A stretch of 63,768 bases of DNA, the filler included. It is 4 parts of 4 records of this genome, joined end to end, with 100 filler letters (N's around TTAATTAATTAA, not from the genome) between each part and the next. Parts side by side here need not be neighbours in the genome. Positions count along the whole stretch, not along the records: positions 1 to 29,509 come from SRR20825010_1300; 3 more parts are not named here. One strand, written 5' to 3'. Each line of letters starts with the position of its first letter. The stretch's first letter is position 1. The notes under the pieces are model-generated. The model was not told the DNA's origin. It did not search any database and saw nothing but the letters and a program-made list of their open reading frames with translations. Below, in pieces: positions 9,113 to 15,948 of the stretch. The translations under genes were made by a program, and so were the position numbers.

Positions 9113-10798
9113 TTAATCGGTGTGCGCTTGCGGCGAGCGCACTTCGGCACTGCCAATACCACGGGGGTCGCTGGCAGCGGTGACTTCGCCGCTTTTCTTG
9201 CCACTGCCCTTGCGCCATAAGATGGCCTGCATATTACCGTAGTTGCGGCCGGTGGAAACCACCTTGTGGCCCATCAGCATCAATTCCTTGGCGGCCTCGC
9301 TGCCGACGAATTCCGGCTCTGCCTGGACTTCGTCAGGCAGAAATTGATGGTGGAATCGCACACGGCTCACCCAGTCTTCCACCGGTTTATCGTTGGCGGC
9401 TTCAATGACGCCCAGCATCACCATGGAGATGATGCGGCTGCCGCCGGGGGTGCCGAGAATGGCCACCCGGTCGTCGAACTCCACGAAGGTGGGGGTCATG
9501 GAAGACAGCGGGCGCTTGCCGGGGGCGATGGCGTTGGCCTGGCTGCCGACCAGGCCGTAGGCATTGGGGCTGCCGGGTTTGGCGGAGAAATCGTCCATTT
9601 CGTTGTTGAGCAGCACTCCGGTGCCGGGGGCCACAAAGCCGCTACCGAACGGCAGGTTAATGCTCAGGGTGGCGGCGACCCGGTTGCCGTCTTTATCCAG
9701 TACCGAGAAATGGGTGGTGTGAAAGCCCTCTTCCACGCCGATGGGCTCGCCCAGGCTGCTGCTGGGGGTGGCCTTGTCCAGGGTGATGCTGCTGGCGCGC
9801 TGTTTGGCGTAGTCGGTACTCAACAGCTTATCCACAGGCATATCCACAAAATCCGGGTCACCCAGATAGCGGGCCCGGTCCTGGTAGGCGCGGCGCATGG
9901 CTTCGATGACCAGGTGCGGGGTCATGTCGCCGGTGTCACCGGCGTTGAACTGGCTGAGGATGTTCAGTGCTTCGCCCATGACGATGCCGCCGGAGGACGG
10001 CGGCGGTGCGGAGATGACTCGTCCTTCGCGGAACGGGCTGACGGTGGGCGTGCGTTCCACCACGGTGTAGTTAGCCAGATCGTCCAGCGTCCAGATGCCG
10101 CCGGCCTGCTGCACGCCGTCTACCAGCTGTTTGGCCACTTCGCCCTGATAGAACCCTGCGTTGCCCTGTTCAGCGATGGCGGTGAGTACCCGGGCCAGAT
10201 CCGGTTGCTGGATCAGGTGGTTATTGGGAGGCACCTTGCCGTTATGCAGGAAAATGGCGGCGGCTTCCGGGAAACGGTTGAGCACGTCTTCGCGGTAACC
10301 GGCGAGCTTGCGGTAATGCTCCTCTACGCGGAAGCCTTTCTCGGCCAGTGCAATGGCTGGGGCCAGGGTGGCAGTGAGGGGTAGTTTGCCGTAGTTGTCC
10401 GCAAGGTGGGCGAAGGCGGCGGCCTGGCCGGGAATGCCGGCGGCGCTGGGGCCGTTTACCGCCCAGTCGCGCATGACGTTGCCATCCTTGTCCTGGTACA
10501 TGGTGGCGGTGGCGGCGCCGGGAGCAGTTTCACGGGCGTCTACAAAGGTCTGCAGCCCGTCCTGTTCCCGGTGCAGCAGCCAGAAGCCGCCCCCGCCCAT
10601 ACCGGCAGAATAGGGTTCGACCACCGCCAGGGCCGCCGCCACGGCCACGGCCGCATCGAAGGCATTACCGCCCTGCTCGAGAATGTTGAGCCCGGCTTCC
10701 GTGGCCAGAGGATGGGCGCTGGCCACCGCGTTCTTGCCCGGCCCGGCCGCCTGGGCGGTGACGGTGATAAGCAGCAGTAACGGGATCAGGGTGCGCAT
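9113..10798 (-). CDS. ggt: Gamma-glutamyltransferase
   Basis: Signal peptide, GGNAFDAAVA, HTTHFSV autocleavage site, LNNEMDDF, RPLSSMTP, GTPGGS; ATG at 10798 with GGAGG RBS. Confidence 0.96.
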   Translation of the reverse strand: MRTLIPLLLLITVTAQAAGPGKNAVASAHPLATEAGLNILEQGGNAFDAAVAVAAALAVVEPYSAGMGGGGFWLLHREQDGLQTFVDARETAPGAATATMYQDKDGNVMRDWAVNGPSAAGIPGQAAAFAHLADNYGKLPLTATLAPAIALAEKGFRVEEHYRKLAGYREDVLNRFPEAAAIFLHNGKVPPNNHLIQQPDLARVLTAIAEQGNAGFYQGEVAKQLVDGVQQAGGIWTLDDLANYTVVERTPTVSPFREGRVISAPPPSSGGIVMGEALNILSQFNAGDTGDMTPHLVIEAMRRAYQDRARYLGDPDFVDMPVDKLLSTDYAKQRASSITLDKATPSSSLGEPIGVEEGFHTTHFSVLDKDGNRVAATLSINLPFGSGFVAPGTGVLLNNEMDDFSAKPGSPNAYGLVGSQANAIAPGKRPLSSMTPTFVEFDDRVAILGTPGGSRIISMVMLGVIEAANDKPVEDWVSRVRFHHQFLPDEVQAEPEFVGSEAAKELMLMGHKVVSTGRNYGNMQAILWRKGSGKKSGEVTAASDPRGIGSAEVRSPQAHTD

Positions 10799-10857
10799 CG
10801 GGTGTCCTCCTTGAGAACCGGTGGGTGTGGAGCGGTGTGCGGCGTTTTTGTATGGCT

Positions 10858-11012
10858 GAGTTGAAAGTGAGAAGTTGAAAGTTGAAACGCGGAGCAGACC
10901 CTTTTCTTCTGCCAGGTGGTGCCCGCGTTCATTGGTAATGGCGCGGGTACGGCGTCTCAAAACCAGATCACCCGGTCCGCGCTTTTGAACTTTAAACTTT
11001 CAACGTTGAACT
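10858..11012. repeat. Intergenic fold-back element with inverted heptamer arrays, copy A
   Basis: Four (A/G)AGTTGA-like units at left, TCAACTT-like units at right, CGCGGA/TCCGCG stem, central GCCCGCG..GGTAATGGCGCGGGTA hairpin shared with 20466-20622. Confidence 0.8.
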
Positions 11013-11013
11013 G

Positions 11014-11751
<738 letters not shown>

Positions 11752-11963
11752 TCATCGTTTGGCAATTGATTTTATATCTTCATCCTCTTTAATCGCCCGC
11801 TTGTCGCCATCCGTTTGCCGGTTGAAAAGCCTCAGGACTAATTTGGGACTCAAGTCACATAAAGTATTAACCGGGTGTAGCACCGGAAGCCGCCGGTCCC
11901 AGGGAAGATCTCCTTGTCTGGGATGTTCAGGGATAGATGCCGATTTCATGGATTGTGGAAACG

Positions 11964-12935
11964 ATGAGAAAGCAACGGCTGGGCTTTGTAGGATTGGGGG
12001 ATGACACGGCAAGCGCCTGCTTGTCCATGTTGAAGATCATGGATGGCCGGTCTGAAGTGGACTGGAGTCATAGTGATCCTGACAGCGCAGATGTGCTGAT
12101 GATTTCCTGCGATCAAACGGATGAAACGCAACGCTGGGAGCGCAGCGGCAAGCCGCGCATTGTCGTATACCACGGTAATCAGCAAAAACCGGCGTCGCCA
12201 TTTATTCTGCAGCACCCTTTTCGGGTCATGCAGTTGTTATCCGTGCTCGACGAAGTTGCGGGCACCTTGTCGTCTGGGGGAACGTCACTGTCCCATTCCC
12301 CTGCCCAAGTGGCTGCGCCCTCTACGTCTGTATCCAATAATGTCTCCCCTTTTTGGTTATCCCTGCATGAGGCGGTTAACGGAAACGTGACAGACCCGGC
12401 AGGACTGTTGGTGTCGTCATCGTCCCATGGCGTGCTGTACTTCAAGCCGGCGTCACAGCGTTTTTATGCAAGCAAGGCGCTGTTCCGCCAGTTGGCTGCA
12501 GGTTCCGTAGAGTTAGGCCCCCTGAAACCTACCGCAGAGGCTGTACCGGAAGAGACGGTGGCTTGCCCGCTGTTTTCATTGTGCTGGATGGTGTCACGTT
12601 ATGGCGCAACGCATCTGGCACCCTGGATGAATCCTGAAGGAGCCTTTCATCTTAAACGCTGGCCCAGTTTCGGCACCCTGGAAAAGAGCCGCACGCATTT
12701 GTCTCTGTGCGCCTTGATGACCAAGCGCCCCCTGACCCGCGAACAAATTCAGCAAGTGTCACACTGCAGCGAGGAAGAGCTGGATAGGTTCATCAATGCG
12801 TGTGAAATGAGTGACCTGATGGTGTTCGAGGAAGCCGTTCAGGTGCCGTTGCCGGAGGCCGCTGCCGAGGAAGGAAAAGGACGCTTTGGTGGTTTGATCA
12901 AAGGCTTGCGCAGTCGATTGGGGTTGAGTGCTTAG
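11964..12935 (+). CDS. Uncharacterised protein: degenerate receiver-like N-terminus, low-complexity linker, putative winged-helix C-terminal domain, terminal amphipathic helix
   Basis: First gene of a tight operon with the GTPase; ADVLMI..ILQHPFRVMQLLSVLDEV (REC-like), LKRWPSF...LDRFINAC, ends FGGLIKGLRSRLGL. Confidence 0.7.
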   Translation: MRKQRLGFVGLGDDTASACLSMLKIMDGRSEVDWSHSDPDSADVLMISCDQTDETQRWERSGKPRIVVYHGNQQKPASPFILQHPFRVMQLLSVLDEVAGTLSSGGTSLSHSPAQVAAPSTSVSNNVSPFWLSLHEAVNGNVTDPAGLLVSSSSHGVLYFKPASQRFYASKALFRQLAAGSVELGPLKPTAEAVPEETVACPLFSLCWMVSRYGATHLAPWMNPEGAFHLKRWPSFGTLEKSRTHLSLCALMTKRPLTREQIQQVSHCSEEELDRFINACEMSDLMVFEEAVQVPLPEAAAEEGKGRFGGLIKGLRSRLGLSA

Positions 12936-12937
12936 CA

Positions 12938-13489
12938 ATGACAAATGACGAATTCAAAATTCTTTTTACCGGTCCCATGGGGGCAGGGAAAACCACGGCA
13001 ATTACTGCATTAAGTGACCAGGAATGTGTGTCCACGGATGTGGTGAATACCGATATCGACCAGTGCGACAAGGAAATGACCACGGCAGCGCTGGATTATG
13101 GCTTCATTGATATTCCTGGCGGGGGGGGTGTGCGCCTTTATGGCACACCAGGGCAGGAGCGGTTTCGGTTTATGTGGCCGATCCTTGCCAATAATGCTGC
13201 TGGTGTGATCGTGCTGTTGAATGGTGAGCACCCGGATCTGGATAGTCACCTGTCAGTGTTCGTCGATGCATTCTGGGAGCAGGGTGCCATGCCAATGGTC
13301 ATTGGCGTAGGCCGGTTGGCCAGCGAGGATTTTGAAATTATCGAACGAATCACCGATACCTTGCTGGAACGTCATATTTCGCCGCCCATTTTTTCTGTGG
13401 ATGTCAGGGAAAAAGACGATGTTCTGTTACTGGTCGAAGCATTGCTTTGCCAGATTGAAGTTAACGAAATGGGAATGATGCAAGCATGA
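12938..13489 (+). CDS. MglA/CvnD-type small Ras-superfamily GTPase
   Basis: G1 GPMGAGKTT, G2 TTAALDYG, G3 LYGTPGQERF, G5-like VDVRE; G4 region reads IGVGRL. Confidence 0.88.
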   Translation: MTNDEFKILFTGPMGAGKTTAITALSDQECVSTDVVNTDIDQCDKEMTTAALDYGFIDIPGGGGVRLYGTPGQERFRFMWPILANNAAGVIVLLNGEHPDLDSHLSVFVDAFWEQGAMPMVIGVGRLASEDFEIIERITDTLLERHISPPIFSVDVREKDDVLLLVEALLCQIEVNEMGMMQA

Positions 13490-13890
13490 AAGTCGCCTCT
13501 CCGCTGGGAAAAACCGAAACGGCGGTTGCCCAGAAAGAACTGGAAAATTTTCAGGAAAATACCAAAGGGGTTACCTCGGCAGTACTGCTGAGTGCCGATG
13601 GGTTTGAAGTGGCCTCGTTACAGGTGAACAAGGATAGCGCAAGCCGGCTTGCAGCCATGGGCAGTTCGTTGGCGGCGATAAGTTCCGCCATTGCCAAGGA
13701 GGCGGGCATTTCCGAATGCAGCAGATTGATTGTTGAATCGGACGAAGGCGTTGTTGCGGTCATGAAGGTTCCGAATCTAAAGCCACCACTGGCACTTGCA
13801 GTGGTGGCGAACGATGCCTCTTTGTTGGGGCAGCTTCTCTGGGGGGCCAAGAACTGTTGTGCCTCTCTTGAGGAAAAACTAAAAAAGTAA
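13486..13890 (+). CDS. Roadblock/LC7 (MglB-like) domain protein
   Basis: GVTSAVLLSADGFEVAS, RLAAMGSSLAA, LIVESDEG, LGQLLW; ATGA overlap with the GTPase. Confidence 0.9.
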   Translation: MKVASPLGKTETAVAQKELENFQENTKGVTSAVLLSADGFEVASLQVNKDSASRLAAMGSSLAAISSAIAKEAGISECSRLIVESDEGVVAVMKVPNLKPPLALAVVANDASLLGQLLWGAKNCCASLEEKLKK

Positions 13891-13945
13891 ATTTTATAAC
13901 CCGATGAAAATATCGGGATAACATAAGTGTTGAAGGAGATTTACC

Positions 13946-14305
13946 ATGGCTAATGTCAAAGAAAGTATGGATGTACTGCTGCAGTCTGACGGTGCCATGT
14001 GTACCGCCATTGTTGATGCCAACAGTGGCATGGTGCTGGGTCAGGCCGGCAGCGGGCTGGACCTGGAGCTGGCAGCGGCGGGCAATACGGAAGTGGTCCG
14101 CGCCAAGTTGAAAACCATGAAGTCGCTGGGTCTCAATGACAAGATTGAAGACATCCTGATTACCCTCGGGACCCAGTATCATATTATTCGTCCGGTGGCT
14201 TCGAAAGAAGGCCTGTTTATCTATCTGGTGCTGGACAAAAGCAAATCGAATCTGGCCCTGGCTCGCCGTAACTGTCAGGAAGTGGAATCCACGCTGTCGC
14301 TGTAA
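13946..14305 (+). CDS. Second, divergent roadblock-fold protein
   Basis: AIVDANSGMVLG, DLELAAAGNTEVVRAK, IEDILITLGTQYHIIRP, NLALAR; GGAGA RBS. Confidence 0.85.
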   Translation: MANVKESMDVLLQSDGAMCTAIVDANSGMVLGQAGSGLDLELAAAGNTEVVRAKLKTMKSLGLNDKIEDILITLGTQYHIIRPVASKEGLFIYLVLDKSKSNLALARRNCQEVESTLSL

Positions 14306-14315
14306 TCTGCTTTCA

Positions 14316-14350
14316 CCCCGCCATGCCTTCTGGTTGGCGGGGCTTTTTCT
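14316..14350 (+). terminator. Rho-independent terminator closing the GTPase operon
   Basis: CCCCGCCA...TGGCGGGG then CTTTTTCT and a long pyrimidine tract. Confidence 0.75.
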
Positions 14351-14402: not shown

Positions 14403-15461
14403 TTACTGTGCCTCAGCGTGGGCCTGCTGCTGGTGGTATCGCCGGGTGCTCTTTTCTATCACCTCCTTTATGTTTGGGGCGGTGGCATGATGCTGCTGGA
14501 GAAAAGCTTCCGTAATGGCGGTATCAAAGCGTGTAGGTTGAATAAAGTGGAGTGCTTCCGGGTAAGTATTCATCAATGCTGCCAGGCCGGGCAGGCGTAA
14601 CAGTGCAGCCAGAACGGGAATGGGTATATAGCGACGCGGGGCATGTTTGTTCATGTGAGCGGCCGCTTGCGCGAGCATCGGTTGGAGATTCGGTGTCTGC
14701 CCATCCAGGGCCAGCAGTTTTTCCGGTACGGCCTCGGCGGTGGCGGCCAGGCGAATGATGTCTGCGAGGTGGTCCACGGCCACCAGAGGCAGCCAGTGTG
14801 CCGGCGTGCCGGGCACCAGCGCCAGGCGACCGCGAGCGAGATTGTCGAGCAGGCTGTATAGCGGTTGGCTGTTATCCAGCTCGCCGGTCTGGCTGTTGCC
14901 GGCCACGGTAGCGGGCTGGACTTCCACAAAATCGAGCGCGTGCTGTTTGGCGAAAGCCCGTGCCCGAAAGGCGGCTTCCAGTTTGCTGGCTTCATAACCG
15001 CCGGCCCGTCGGTAGACCTTCGGCCAGTCGGTGCCTAAGGGCTCGGCGGTATCAATGCCAAGCCGATTCAGGTGCGCCCGGTTTTCCAGCATGAAACCAC
15101 TGATAAACACCAAACGGCATTGATGTTGGCGGGCCAATTCTGCCACGGCCAGGCTGCCTGCGACATTGGTGTGGCGGGCGGTCCTGGTGTCCAGCCGCCA
15201 GGCGAAACGGGCGCCGAGATGAATGACGGCGTCGAGTTCGGGAAGGGGTGCGGTCAGGCCCAGATGAGGCTGATCCAGATCGCCGCTGACCGGCTGGAGC
15301 AAGTGGTCTTGCCCGCCAAGGGCGTCTACCTGTTGGCGGAGGGTATCCAGTTGAGCCTCTGGGCGCCGCAGCATGGTGACGACGGTGTGGTTCTGGCGGG
15401 TCAGGCTGGCGCAGACGTGGCGACCGATAAAACCGGTGGCCCCGGTGATAAAGAAGATCAT
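14403..15461 (-). CDS. Extended SDR / NAD-dependent epimerase-reductase
   Basis: ITGATGFIG Rossmann motif, NVAGS, YEASK catalytic YxxxK. Confidence 0.9.
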   Translation of the reverse strand: MIFFITGATGFIGRHVCASLTRQNHTVVTMLRRPEAQLDTLRQQVDALGGQDHLLQPVSGDLDQPHLGLTAPLPELDAVIHLGARFAWRLDTRTARHTNVAGSLAVAELARQHQCRLVFISGFMLENRAHLNRLGIDTAEPLGTDWPKVYRRAGGYEASKLEAAFRARAFAKQHALDFVEVQPATVAGNSQTGELDNSQPLYSLLDNLARGRLALVPGTPAHWLPLVAVDHLADIIRLAATAEAVPEKLLALDGQTPNLQPMLAQAAAHMNKHAPRRYIPIPVLAALLRLPGLAALMNTYPEALHFIQPTRFDTAITEAFLQQHHATAPNIKEVIEKSTRRYHQQQAHAEAQ

Positions 15462-15564: not shown

Positions 15565-15948
15565 ATGCGCATTGCAGAGCTGGAGCAACGAACCGGTGTA
15601 AGCCGCCATACCTTGCGGTATTACGAAAAAGAGGGGTTGCTGCTGGAGGTCGGCAGGCGGGGTAATAACTACCGGGATTATTCGGAAAAAGCGGTGCAGC
15701 GGGTGGGCATGGTGCGCCAGCTCAAGGCGCTGGGGTTTTCGCTCAAGGAGATCCGCGAGGTGCTGGACGCCCTGCGCAGTGACAGCATCGATTGTGACCA
15801 GGGGGCGGCGTTGATGGCCGAGAAGAAAGCCGCGGTGGATCGCAAGATCACGGAGCTGAAGGCGGTCAGCCGGCTGTTGGGTGAGGAGCAAAAACGTTTG
15901 CTCGCCAGTGCTGAGGCGCAGCGGCGTAGCCAGTCTTGCGCAGGGTAA
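15565..15948 (+). CDS. MerR family transcriptional regulator
   Basis: MRIAELEQRTGVSRHTLRYYEKEGLL, NNYRDY, LGFSLKEI. Confidence 0.95.
   Translation: MRIAELEQRTGVSRHTLRYYEKEGLLLEVGRRGNNYRDYSEKAVQRVGMVRQLKALGFSLKEIREVLDALRSDSIDCDQGAALMAEKKAAVDRKITELKAVSRLLGEEQKRLLASAEAQRRSQSCAG

Follow-up and report, generated by a model that had tools for sequence, protein, structure and literature searches.

What kind of switch is encoded by a compact four-gene cassette in which a small GTPase is accompanied by two roadblock proteins and a multi-domain first gene product, and how do its parts fit together? The question is raised by a stretch of DNA of 63,768 nt including filler (the 63.8-kb window, along which all coordinates are counted), which probably comes from an Alcanivorax genome because of the names carried by the closest homologues of the first and fourth cassette genes. 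Four open reading frames (ORFs) on the same strand (+), g1-g2-g3-g4, were called at 11964-14305, and they form a G-protein switch of the MglA family, Group 3, which adds a further member, in Alcanivorax, to the systems catalogued in 2014 (PMC4316618). The arrangement was therefore already in print, and no new kind of system has been discovered here, although the Group 3 system, catalogued as it is, remains biochemically uncharacterised. The additions made here, modest and testable, are a cryptic conserved roadblock protein, g4, and a modelled docking of g1 on the GTPase. The genes are:

11964-12935, + strand: g1, 323 aa, the 'DUF' protein (DUF, domain of unknown function) of Group 3 MglA systems
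12938-13489, + strand: g2, 183 aa, MglA-family small GTPase of Group 3 type
13486-13890, + strand: g3, 134 aa, roadblock/LC7 protein (MglB/CvnB-like), presumed subunit of a GTPase-activating protein (GAP)
13946-14305, + strand: g4, 119 aa, cryptic, highly conserved protein of predicted roadblock fold

Assignment to Group 3

In the survey of Wuichet and Sogaard-Andersen (2014, Genome Biol Evol, PMC4316618), bacterial MglA homologues were split into five groups. Groups 2-5 carry GTPGQ (not DxxGQ) in the G3 motif and have a threonine where the arginine finger would stand; Groups 2 and 3 share a G4 motif that departs from [NT]KxD and a G5 motif of the form D-A-R, and Group 3 is almost confined to beta- and gamma-Proteobacteria. 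Table S2 of that work (supplement file 3) holds 44 Group 3 rows with the order DUF>MglA>MglB(>MglB) in all but a few, and Phyre2 predicted for the DUF protein a receiver-like N-terminal part joined through a linker of variable length to a winged helix at the C-terminus; an Alcanivorax entry was not found in the searched supplementary file 3. The window has the same set of features, namely a P-loop, GTPGQ, threonine for the arginine finger, no NKxD and a G5 motif D-x-R, in a neighbourhood of DUF protein, MglA and one or two MglB, with the corresponding architecture of the DUF protein.

The motifs of g2, read in an alignment with 29 relatives (A2, 30 sequences), mark it as a small GTPase of the GTPGQ type. 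The P-loop GPMGAGKT at residues 12-19 fits GxxxxGK[ST]; in the G3 motif GTPGQ (69-73) G69, P71, G72 and Q73 are invariant; T48 and T49 are both invariant and place a threonine where the arginine finger would be; NKxD is missing from the G4 region in all 30 aligned GTPases; and in G5, D-V-R in the window, D155 is at least 90% conserved and R157 invariant. Pfam matches are to ATP_bind_1 (1.2e-6), Roc and MMR_HSR1, and the relatives amount to 1478 cluster representatives (50% identity) at E<=1e-3. The earlier description of this protein as MglA-type is right as to family, with the qualification that the GTPGQ type is shared with the conservon GTPase CvnD and not with the TVPGQ/arginine-finger GTPase of Myxococcus.

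A census anchored on the GTPase covered 185,579 species genomes, from which the best 80 of 575 confirmed stretches were taken, with no Alcanivorax locus among the 80. A g1-family ORF lies on the same strand beside the GTPase in 42 of them, directly upstream in 41, and the order g1-g2-g3-g4 is kept in 10 fetched loci and permuted in one; the expectation that similar operons exist in other proteobacteria was borne out by this neighbourhood survey. In L009 (Acinetobacter sp.) the order is GTPase, roadblock, g1, g4, the four genes still standing together. In a quick tree, which contained no sequence labelled Group 3 by the authors of PMC4316618, a single branch, with a Shimodaira-Hasegawa-like approximate likelihood ratio (SH-aLRT) support of 100, separates off all 43 g1-coupled GTPases (43/43, that of the window among them), the branch of the window itself being long (1.38). 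This clade takes in the GTPases of Neisseria, Snodgrassella and Stenotrophomonas, and stands apart from GTPases linked to PATAN or DUF742 proteins.

Two roadblock proteins

The roadblock nature of g3 can be read directly: Pfam gives Robl_LC7 (1.1e-10), a sequence search of the PDB gives Rv3364c (2.2e-5), and the family profile against the PDB recovers an Asgard roadblock protein (8.6e-32), CvnB5 (1.9e-21), Rv3364c (1.2e-19) and Myxococcus MglB (5.5e-5). Its Asp38-Gly39, invariant in 26 sequences, corresponds to the conserved Asp-Gly pair by which MglBs coupled to Groups 2-5 face the GTPase (PMC4316618).

For g4, on the other hand, no Pfam or NCBIfam family was found, PF03259 was absent from g4 and from each of 23 relatives, a single-sequence search of the PDB gave chance-level matches only, and the family profile returned nothing but 7yh1_D at E 0.48; with profile searches fruitless, structure comparison was needed. 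The AF2 model (predicted local distance difference test, pLDDT, 91.5) has the order alpha-beta-beta-alpha-beta-beta-beta-alpha, and its top Foldseek match is 6izw_C, the MglB of M. xanthus in complex with MglA (E 9.3e-7, template modelling (TM) score 0.82, root-mean-square deviation 1.7 A), among 121 PDB matches at E<=1e-3. A profile comparison with the g3 family is borderline (hhalign, 72.7%, E 3.2e-5), and in the ESM Atlas the nearest Pfam-bearing cluster is Robl_LC7 at 0.89, which is a lead only. Both g3 and g4 have the roadblock fold of the MglB/CvnB GTPase regulators, for g4 on the strength of the predicted structure; the two dissimilar roadblocks that had been proposed from the DNA are upheld, g3 by Pfam and g4 by structure only (HHpred-type and Foldseek checks).

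When the window is compared with nine beta- and gamma-proteobacterial loci of the same gene order, g4 is 57-74% identical, against 39-49% for the GTPase, 26-36% for g3 and 22-38% for g1, which makes g4, as judged from these alignments, the slowest-evolving part of the cassette; L013 and L070 hold divergent forms, 25-27% identical to g4 of the window. At E<=1e-3 the family comprises 7935 clusters; of the 120 relatives among the matches listed, 114 have a length of exactly 119 aa. Table S2 gives one MglB only for the systems of Variovorax, Stenotrophomonas and Acinetobacter (PMC4316618), and g4 is present in the fetched loci of these three genera, so that a g4-type gene was probably missed in such 'one-MglB' systems, the strains compared being different ones.

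The first gene product

For g1 no family was found in Pfam or NCBIfam, and a sequence search of the PDB gave chance-level matches only. At E<=1e-3 there are 57 homologues, the named ones mostly from Alcanivorax with one from Dokdonella. The AF2 model has a mean pLDDT of 82.5, and the protein can be divided as follows:

12276-12347, + strand: residues 105-128, low-complexity linker, variable in length across the family
11964-12275, + strand: residues 1-104, receiver-like (pseudo-receiver) domain, by Foldseek
12348-12653, + strand: residues 129-230, alpha/beta middle domain
12654-12833, + strand: residues 231-290, conserved L-x-R-W-P motif and predicted winged helix
12882-12932, + strand: residues 307-323, basic C-terminal helix

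Foldseek matches of the N-terminal domain in the PDB are nearly all response-regulator receivers (best E 3e-3, probability 1.0, TM normalised by target 0.5-0.6). The position of the phosphorylated aspartate is occupied by Ser48 and that of the beta5 lysine by His84, and neither Asp nor Lys occurs at these sites in any of 26 sequences of the Alcanivorax/Dokdonella clade (0/26 each); in g1-family proteins from other loci Asp is present in 16/26 and Lys in 15/26. The label pseudo-receiver is on these alignments right for the Alcanivorax/Dokdonella clade, because Asp and Lys are missing throughout it, and not necessarily for the whole g1 family. The linker is disordered at residues 106-124 (pLDDT <50). 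For the middle domain, where pLDDT is mostly 86-96 and 65-81 in the first and tenth 10-residue blocks, no family match was found, a Foldseek search with full-length g1 giving nearly only receivers.

Among 52 g1-family sequences P234 is invariant, and W233 and L230 are at least 90% conserved. Residues 243-289 form three helices and a strand in the AF2 model, resembling a winged helix, and weak to moderate Pfam matches to MarR_2/HTH_24 occur in 2/52 members (best MarR_2, 1.2e-7); the winged helix-turn-helix (wHTH) call stands on this modelled secondary structure and these matches, and to that extent the pseudo-receiver/wHTH description given to the first gene earlier is confirmed. The terminal helix spans residues 307-318 in the model, its segment carries a net charge of +4, and L315, R316 and L319 are invariant in the narrow g1 alignment A1. 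A search of the ESM Atlas with residues 225-323 was uninformative.

Modelled contact between g1 and the GTPase

That g1 and the GTPase are coupled is supported by natural fusions: 8 of the 27 long proteins (>=240 aa) among 150 GTPase relatives carry a g1 region N-terminal to their GTPase domain, one of them full-length (P0090, 511 aa), some of which could be gene-calling artefacts. A 444-aa Xanthomonas entry in Table S2 (PMC4316618) was counted beside such fused forms.

Among the possible GTPase partners complex prediction concerned g1 only, and was carried out with ESMFold2 on single sequences, without alignments, in three runs and with 3 controls. The interaction prediction score from aligned errors (ipSAE) was 0.82/0.82/0.83 against 0.01 for the best control; the calibration mark of the method is reached by 51/78 solved complexes and by 2/108 mismatched pairs. 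At least 91% of contacts are common to the runs, and the partner pLDDT is at least 77. In the model, g1 contributes residues 199-205, 231-255 (RWP motif and first wHTH helix) and 296-321 (terminal helix), and the GTPase residues 57-65 (beta2-beta3 hairpin), 148-153 and 163-181 (alpha5), such that residues 305-321 of g1 touch alpha5 with low expected error; the charges are complementary, +4 for the g1 helix and -5 for alpha5. The complex model supports binding of g1 to the GTPase but does not show it. For comparison, the C-terminal helix of Myxococcus MglB promotes nucleotide exchange and binds a pocket lined by alpha5, beta2 and the beta2-beta3 loop (PMC6785124).

The same contact bears on two other explanations of g1. 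It could be a GTPase-controlled transcription factor whose winged helix binds DNA and whose regulon is switched by the GTPase cycle, as the fold and the MarR_2/HTH_24 matches would allow and as was proposed from the wHTH in PMC4316618. The presumed recognition helix (helix 3 of the wHTH), however, has a net charge of -4, so that the winged helix is poorly suited to binding DNA; the charge of the RWP-wHTH segment as a whole is -2; the modelled GTPase interface buries helix 1; a homologous DUF742 wHTH protein, in the single case tested, acts on its GTPase and not on DNA (PMC11343762); and no conserved neighbouring target genes are seen in 12 window-like loci. We regard this explanation as unlikely.

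The other explanation, less probable again, is that g1 is a membrane-tethered scaffold, the amphipathic basic helix inserting into the inner membrane and recruiting the GTPase and the roadblock proteins. The tail is basic and amphipathic in 42/43 family members (net positive in each of these), is strongly conserved, and presumably resembles the membrane-targeting helices of the MinD/FtsA type. Yet this is the helix that packs on alpha5 in the model, and an equivalent helix ends the DUF742 and PATAN-wHTH proteins; the two roles could alternate. Membrane tethering of g1, as assumed in the original prediction, is left without support, the basic helix being modelled on the GTPase and thus unavailable to a membrane, although g1 may yet have some role there.

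A docking module apparently shared with PATAN and DUF742 proteins

In the 38 census loci without g1, the gene directly before the GTPase codes for DUF4388/PATAN in 24 cases and for DUF742 in 3, and in at least some of the upstream PATAN proteins a wHTH is present as well. In hhalign the g1 family (43 sequences) matches the PATAN-wHTH proteins (22 sequences) with 84.6% and E 6.9e-6 over 96 columns, covering the RWP motif, the wHTH and the C-terminal helix, and the PATAN-wHTH proteins match DUF742 over the same parts with 91.1% and E 1.1e-6. Along these lines, the C-terminal helix of g1 aligns with the terminal helix of both PATAN-wHTH and DUF742 proteins. The profile signal came only with the broader 43-sequence g1 alignment. 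Pfam searches gave no DUF742 match for g1 or its family members and no DUF4388 match in g1 or 52 family members.

The comparison matters since for one DUF742 protein a function is at hand: MfpC binds the conservon GTPase MfpB and accelerates exchange, the roadblock protein MfpD being its GAP (PMC11343762). A paper joining DUF742 and DUF4388 was not found in a literature search that left most subscription journals outside. As a tentative generalisation, which we hold to be possible though doubtful, a three-part core of GTPase, roadblock GAP and a 'winged helix plus terminal helix' module might be common to the MglA systems of Groups 2 and 3 and to the PATAN-linked ones; the module would clamp the alpha5/beta2-beta3 allosteric pocket to control nucleotide exchange. 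Conservons would have it as free-standing DUF742, Chloroflexota and Cyanobacteriota as a fusion to PATAN, and Proteobacteria as a fusion to a (pseudo-)receiver; the so-called DNA-binding wHTH would be a GTPase-binding domain, and the near-invariant g4 an output adaptor contacting a conserved cellular machine.

Some loci without g1 have other genes upstream of the GTPase, a hemerythrin in Prosthecobacter (L042:4813-5448) and protoglobins in two cyanobacteria (L049:2733-3320 and L050:4473-5027), the gene standing immediately upstream in L042 and L049. These hint at gas or redox sensing inputs to sister systems.

Proposed mechanism

The explanation that serves best as a whole, and to which we give an even chance, is a Group 3 switch whose GTPase has a g3-g4 GAP pair on its switch face and, on the opposite side, g1, which controls exchange or state. 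The GTPase would cycle between nucleotide states. On its switch face the g3-g4 heterodimer would replace the asymmetric MglB dimer and act as GAP, as suggested by the family of the two proteins and by the 1:2 asymmetric MglA-MglB complex described in PMC4316618; g3 keeps the Asp-Gly pair, and g4 may instead carry a second, strongly constrained interface. On the opposite side, g1 would dock with its RWP motif, first wHTH helix and basic helix on the acidic alpha5 and the beta2-beta3 hairpin, the predicted site being the pocket through which, in Myxococcus, the MglB C-terminal helix promotes exchange. By analogy, the most likely role of g1 is to govern nucleotide exchange or to keep the GTPase in a single state, because its module resembles the C-terminus of the PATAN-wHTH proteins and, through it, DUF742, of which MfpC is an experimentally shown exchange factor. 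The pseudo-receiver, non-phosphorylatable in this clade, and the middle domain would receive an input or bind a target.

Several results weigh against this explanation. Direct comparison of g1 with DUF742 is weak (hhalign, 18%, E 1.3e-3), the narrow alignment A1 gives insignificant matches to PATAN-wHTH and DUF742 (E 0.065 and 0.092), and between the N-terminal domain of g1 and PATAN there is no detectable similarity (hhalign, E 0.43). The complex score is the model's own confidence and may partly echo solved MglA-MglB structures with a helix in the same pocket, and in a calibration of the tool 7/44 blindly chosen neighbouring gene pairs also passed. Helix alpha5 is acidic in 37/43 GTPases with g1 and in 26/38 without, and is thus not g1-specific; complementarity of charge, tried as a discriminating test, failed, since most relatives have the acidic helix either way. 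As regards g4, it has S27-G28 where coupled MglBs have Asp-Gly, and by tblastn or hidden Markov model (HMM) it was not found in 4/16 window-like loci (L002, L003, L021 and L033). Finally, RomRX is reported to be an effector and not a GEF (guanine nucleotide exchange factor) (PMC13408092), and the failure of that role assigned by analogy calls for caution in naming g1 a GEF.

Apart from those of Myxococcus and the actinobacterial conservons, Ras-like switches of bacteria have hardly been studied, in spite of their spread: the g4 family alone has the 7935 clusters given above, and Neisseria, Stenotrophomonas, Acinetobacter and Xanthomonas all have Group 3 loci. If g1 indeed docks on the allosteric pocket, this would offer a way of testing how such switches are loaded, and a predicted DNA-binding domain would be reread as a GTPase-binding domain. 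To trace the output of the cassette, an oil degrader that is non-pathogenic and grows easily would be well suited as host.

Leads on the output

The only functional work on Group 3 found in a literature search, with most subscription journals outside it, is a paper on Snodgrassella (PMC11112851), a bacterium with a Group 3 locus, in which G78R in an orphan third mglB gene spread in a non-native bee host, altered the edges of soft-agar colonies and conferred a colonisation advantage; transposon sequencing (Tn-seq) data, re-read by the authors, indicated that all three mglB genes are beneficial in the gut. The view that no functional study of this arrangement existed has to be corrected accordingly, since these alleles and Tn-seq data amount to a partial one. 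By analogy, surface behaviour (type IV pili, adhesion, colonisation) is the only lead on output.

Taken further, this lead would make the cassette a regulator of polarity or type IV pili resembling Myxococcus MglA-MglB, an idea that concerns output and is compatible with the best explanation given above. Besides the colony-edge and colonisation effects, a T2SSF/PilC-like gene after the cassette in L002 and a fimbrial gene near the cassette in L035 speak for it. These are, however, only 2/12 scanned window-like loci, the other flanks being unrelated metabolic or transport genes; the Snodgrassella mutation lies in an orphan gene and its link to motility was inferred by the authors (PMC11112851); the GTPase is without the Group 1 TVPGQ/arginine-finger mechanism; and HMM searches of the 63.8-kb window detected no orphan roadblock, pilus gene or second GTPase. 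Such a role is, all in all, rather improbable. Flanking genes differ in all 12 window-like loci examined, so that the flanks point to no output, which is a further count against the preferred explanation.

Variants of the locus

In L004 (Polaromonas, L004:1971-4867) the genes directly upstream of g1, on its strand, encode a CHASE3-PAS histidine kinase and a LuxR-type response regulator, the sole case among the 12 window-like loci with scanned flanks. In Stenotrophomonas the cassette of L033 stands between monomeric isocitrate dehydrogenase and the AceK kinase/phosphatase, and in L034 AceK lies downstream and an ORF free of Pfam matches upstream; g4 of L034 sits in the 400-nt gap before aceK, and the gap of similar size in L033 has no detectable g4.

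A third layout was met in L029, L037, L039 and L041, where a protein of 465-520 aa is encoded between the GTPase and two roadblock genes (e.g. L037:6576-7973, L039:6539-7948). In L037 and L039 it combines an ABC-type ATPase with a dual-specificity protein phosphatase (Pfam ABC_tran and Tc-R-P/PTP-SAK/DSPc), and this fusion may be the output or input enzyme of the subtype. The inspected loci of Neisseria, Snodgrassella, Methylococcaceae and Thiotrichaceae have a gene for a protein of 211-220 aa right after the GTPase (L012:6533-7174, L011:6535-7173, and equivalents in L007, L014, L017, L020, L023, L027 and L036); a Pfam match was not found in the two that were checked, L012 and L011, and by eye the C-terminal half is roadblock-like, the N-terminal ~90 residues forming a conserved extension.

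Gene junctions, flanks and base composition

The four genes are co-oriented and tightly packed, as had been read from the DNA. The g1/g2 junction is TAG-CA-ATG with a 2-nt gap, g2 and g3 overlap by ATGA, and a 55-nt spacer with a strong ribosome-binding site, GAAGGAGA, precedes g4. A longer g1 frame opens at 11937, and the start was set at the 11964 Met by homologues: all but one of the distant ones (<90% identity) begin at this Met or are shorter. Two further features delimit the unit:

11507-11963, no strand: intergenic region of 457 nt, GC content 0.51, between the divergent coaD and g1
14316-14349, + strand: intrinsic-terminator-like hairpin and T-run, by RNA folding

The intergenic region presumably holds the promoter or promoters of the cassette. 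A scan for sigma-70-like promoters in its 457 nt gave 0 sites against 2.3 expected, a result to be set against the preferred explanation, and Rfam gave nothing above chance; the 450-nt leader formerly assigned to the cassette is real as an intergenic stretch and a guess as a leader. The proposed terminator fared better, the hairpin at 14316-14342 (27 nt, -21.3 kcal/mol) being followed by CTTTTTC as the end of the unit; a terminator scanner made no call for it.

Upstream lie a coaD-like cytidylyltransferase gene (11014-11694, - strand, likely true start ~11505), divergent from g1, and a gamma-glutamyltranspeptidase gene (9113-10960, - strand), whose listed ORF overruns the likely true start. 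Downstream and convergent, the gene at 14403-15461 (- strand) matches NAD_binding_4 ('male sterility', fatty-acyl reductase-like; 1.3e-26) and Epimerase, and beyond this NAD-dependent reductase gene a MerR-family regulator is found at 15565-15948; a link to the cassette was seen for neither. With these neighbours, the statement that the cassette has no kinase or membrane sensor holds.

The cassette has a GC content of 0.529, compared with 0.567 for the whole window and 0.58-0.64 for adjacent genes, and at third codon positions (GC3) its genes have 0.54-0.64 versus 0.69-0.79. That it is less GC-rich than its flanks is correct, the dip being modest and not an outlier, as 13.8% of 615 same-size windows of the stretch are as low or lower. 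Together with the variable flanks and a patchy taxonomy (a Pseudomonas GTPase nests among Comamonadaceae in the quick tree), the dip might suggest a horizontally acquired module for anti-phage defence or another mobile accessory function. Against this, a PADLOC search with each of the four proteins matched 0 families at E<=0.01; next to the cassette neither integrase nor repeat nor tRNA was seen, none having been searched for; and many named Alcanivorax species have g1 homologues, 39-97% identical, in keeping with a long stay in the genus. Such an origin is accordingly very hard to credit.

Comparison with known systems

The closest likeness is to the Group 3 MglA systems, with which the cassette shares the gene order, GTPGQ, the lack of NKxD, the D-x-R form of G5, the architecture of the DUF protein and the beta/gamma-proteobacterial range. 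It belongs to the branch listed there with one MglB, yet has a Pfam-negative second roadblock, and the receiver-like domain of its clade is without the Asp and Lys that many other members keep.

Myxococcus/Thermus MglA-MglB (Group 1) likewise combines a small GTPase with a roadblock regulator, on which the model of g4 superposes, and helix docking in the alpha5/beta2-beta3 pocket is known there too. In Group 1, however, the GTPase has TVPGQ and an intrinsic arginine finger, in place of GTPGQ and Thr-Thr in the cassette, and the docking helix is acidic and comes from MglB, whereas that of the cassette is basic and would come from g1, its roadblocks being without such an extension.

The PATAN (DUF4388)-wHTH proteins of Chloroflexota, Cyanobacteriota, Actinomycetota and Deinococcota occupy the position of g1 directly before the GTPase, and although their N-terminal domains are not detectably related to that of g1, the C-terminal wHTH and terminal helix are similar at the profile level.

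Conservons (CvnA-D; the mycobacterial Mfp operon) differ from the cassette in the histidine-kinase-like membrane protein CvnA, which the cassette and its neighbours (gamma-glutamyltranspeptidase, CoaD-like, NAD-dependent reductase, MerR) do not provide, and in having one roadblock instead of two. Furthermore, g1 falls outside Pfam DUF742, has three times the length and contains a pseudo-receiver as well as a middle domain, and the GTPases of the two systems fall into separate clades of the quick tree. What conservons and the cassette have in common is a GTPGQ-type GTPase with a roadblock GAP (presumed in the cassette), and a wHTH-plus-helix protein encoded directly before the GTPase.

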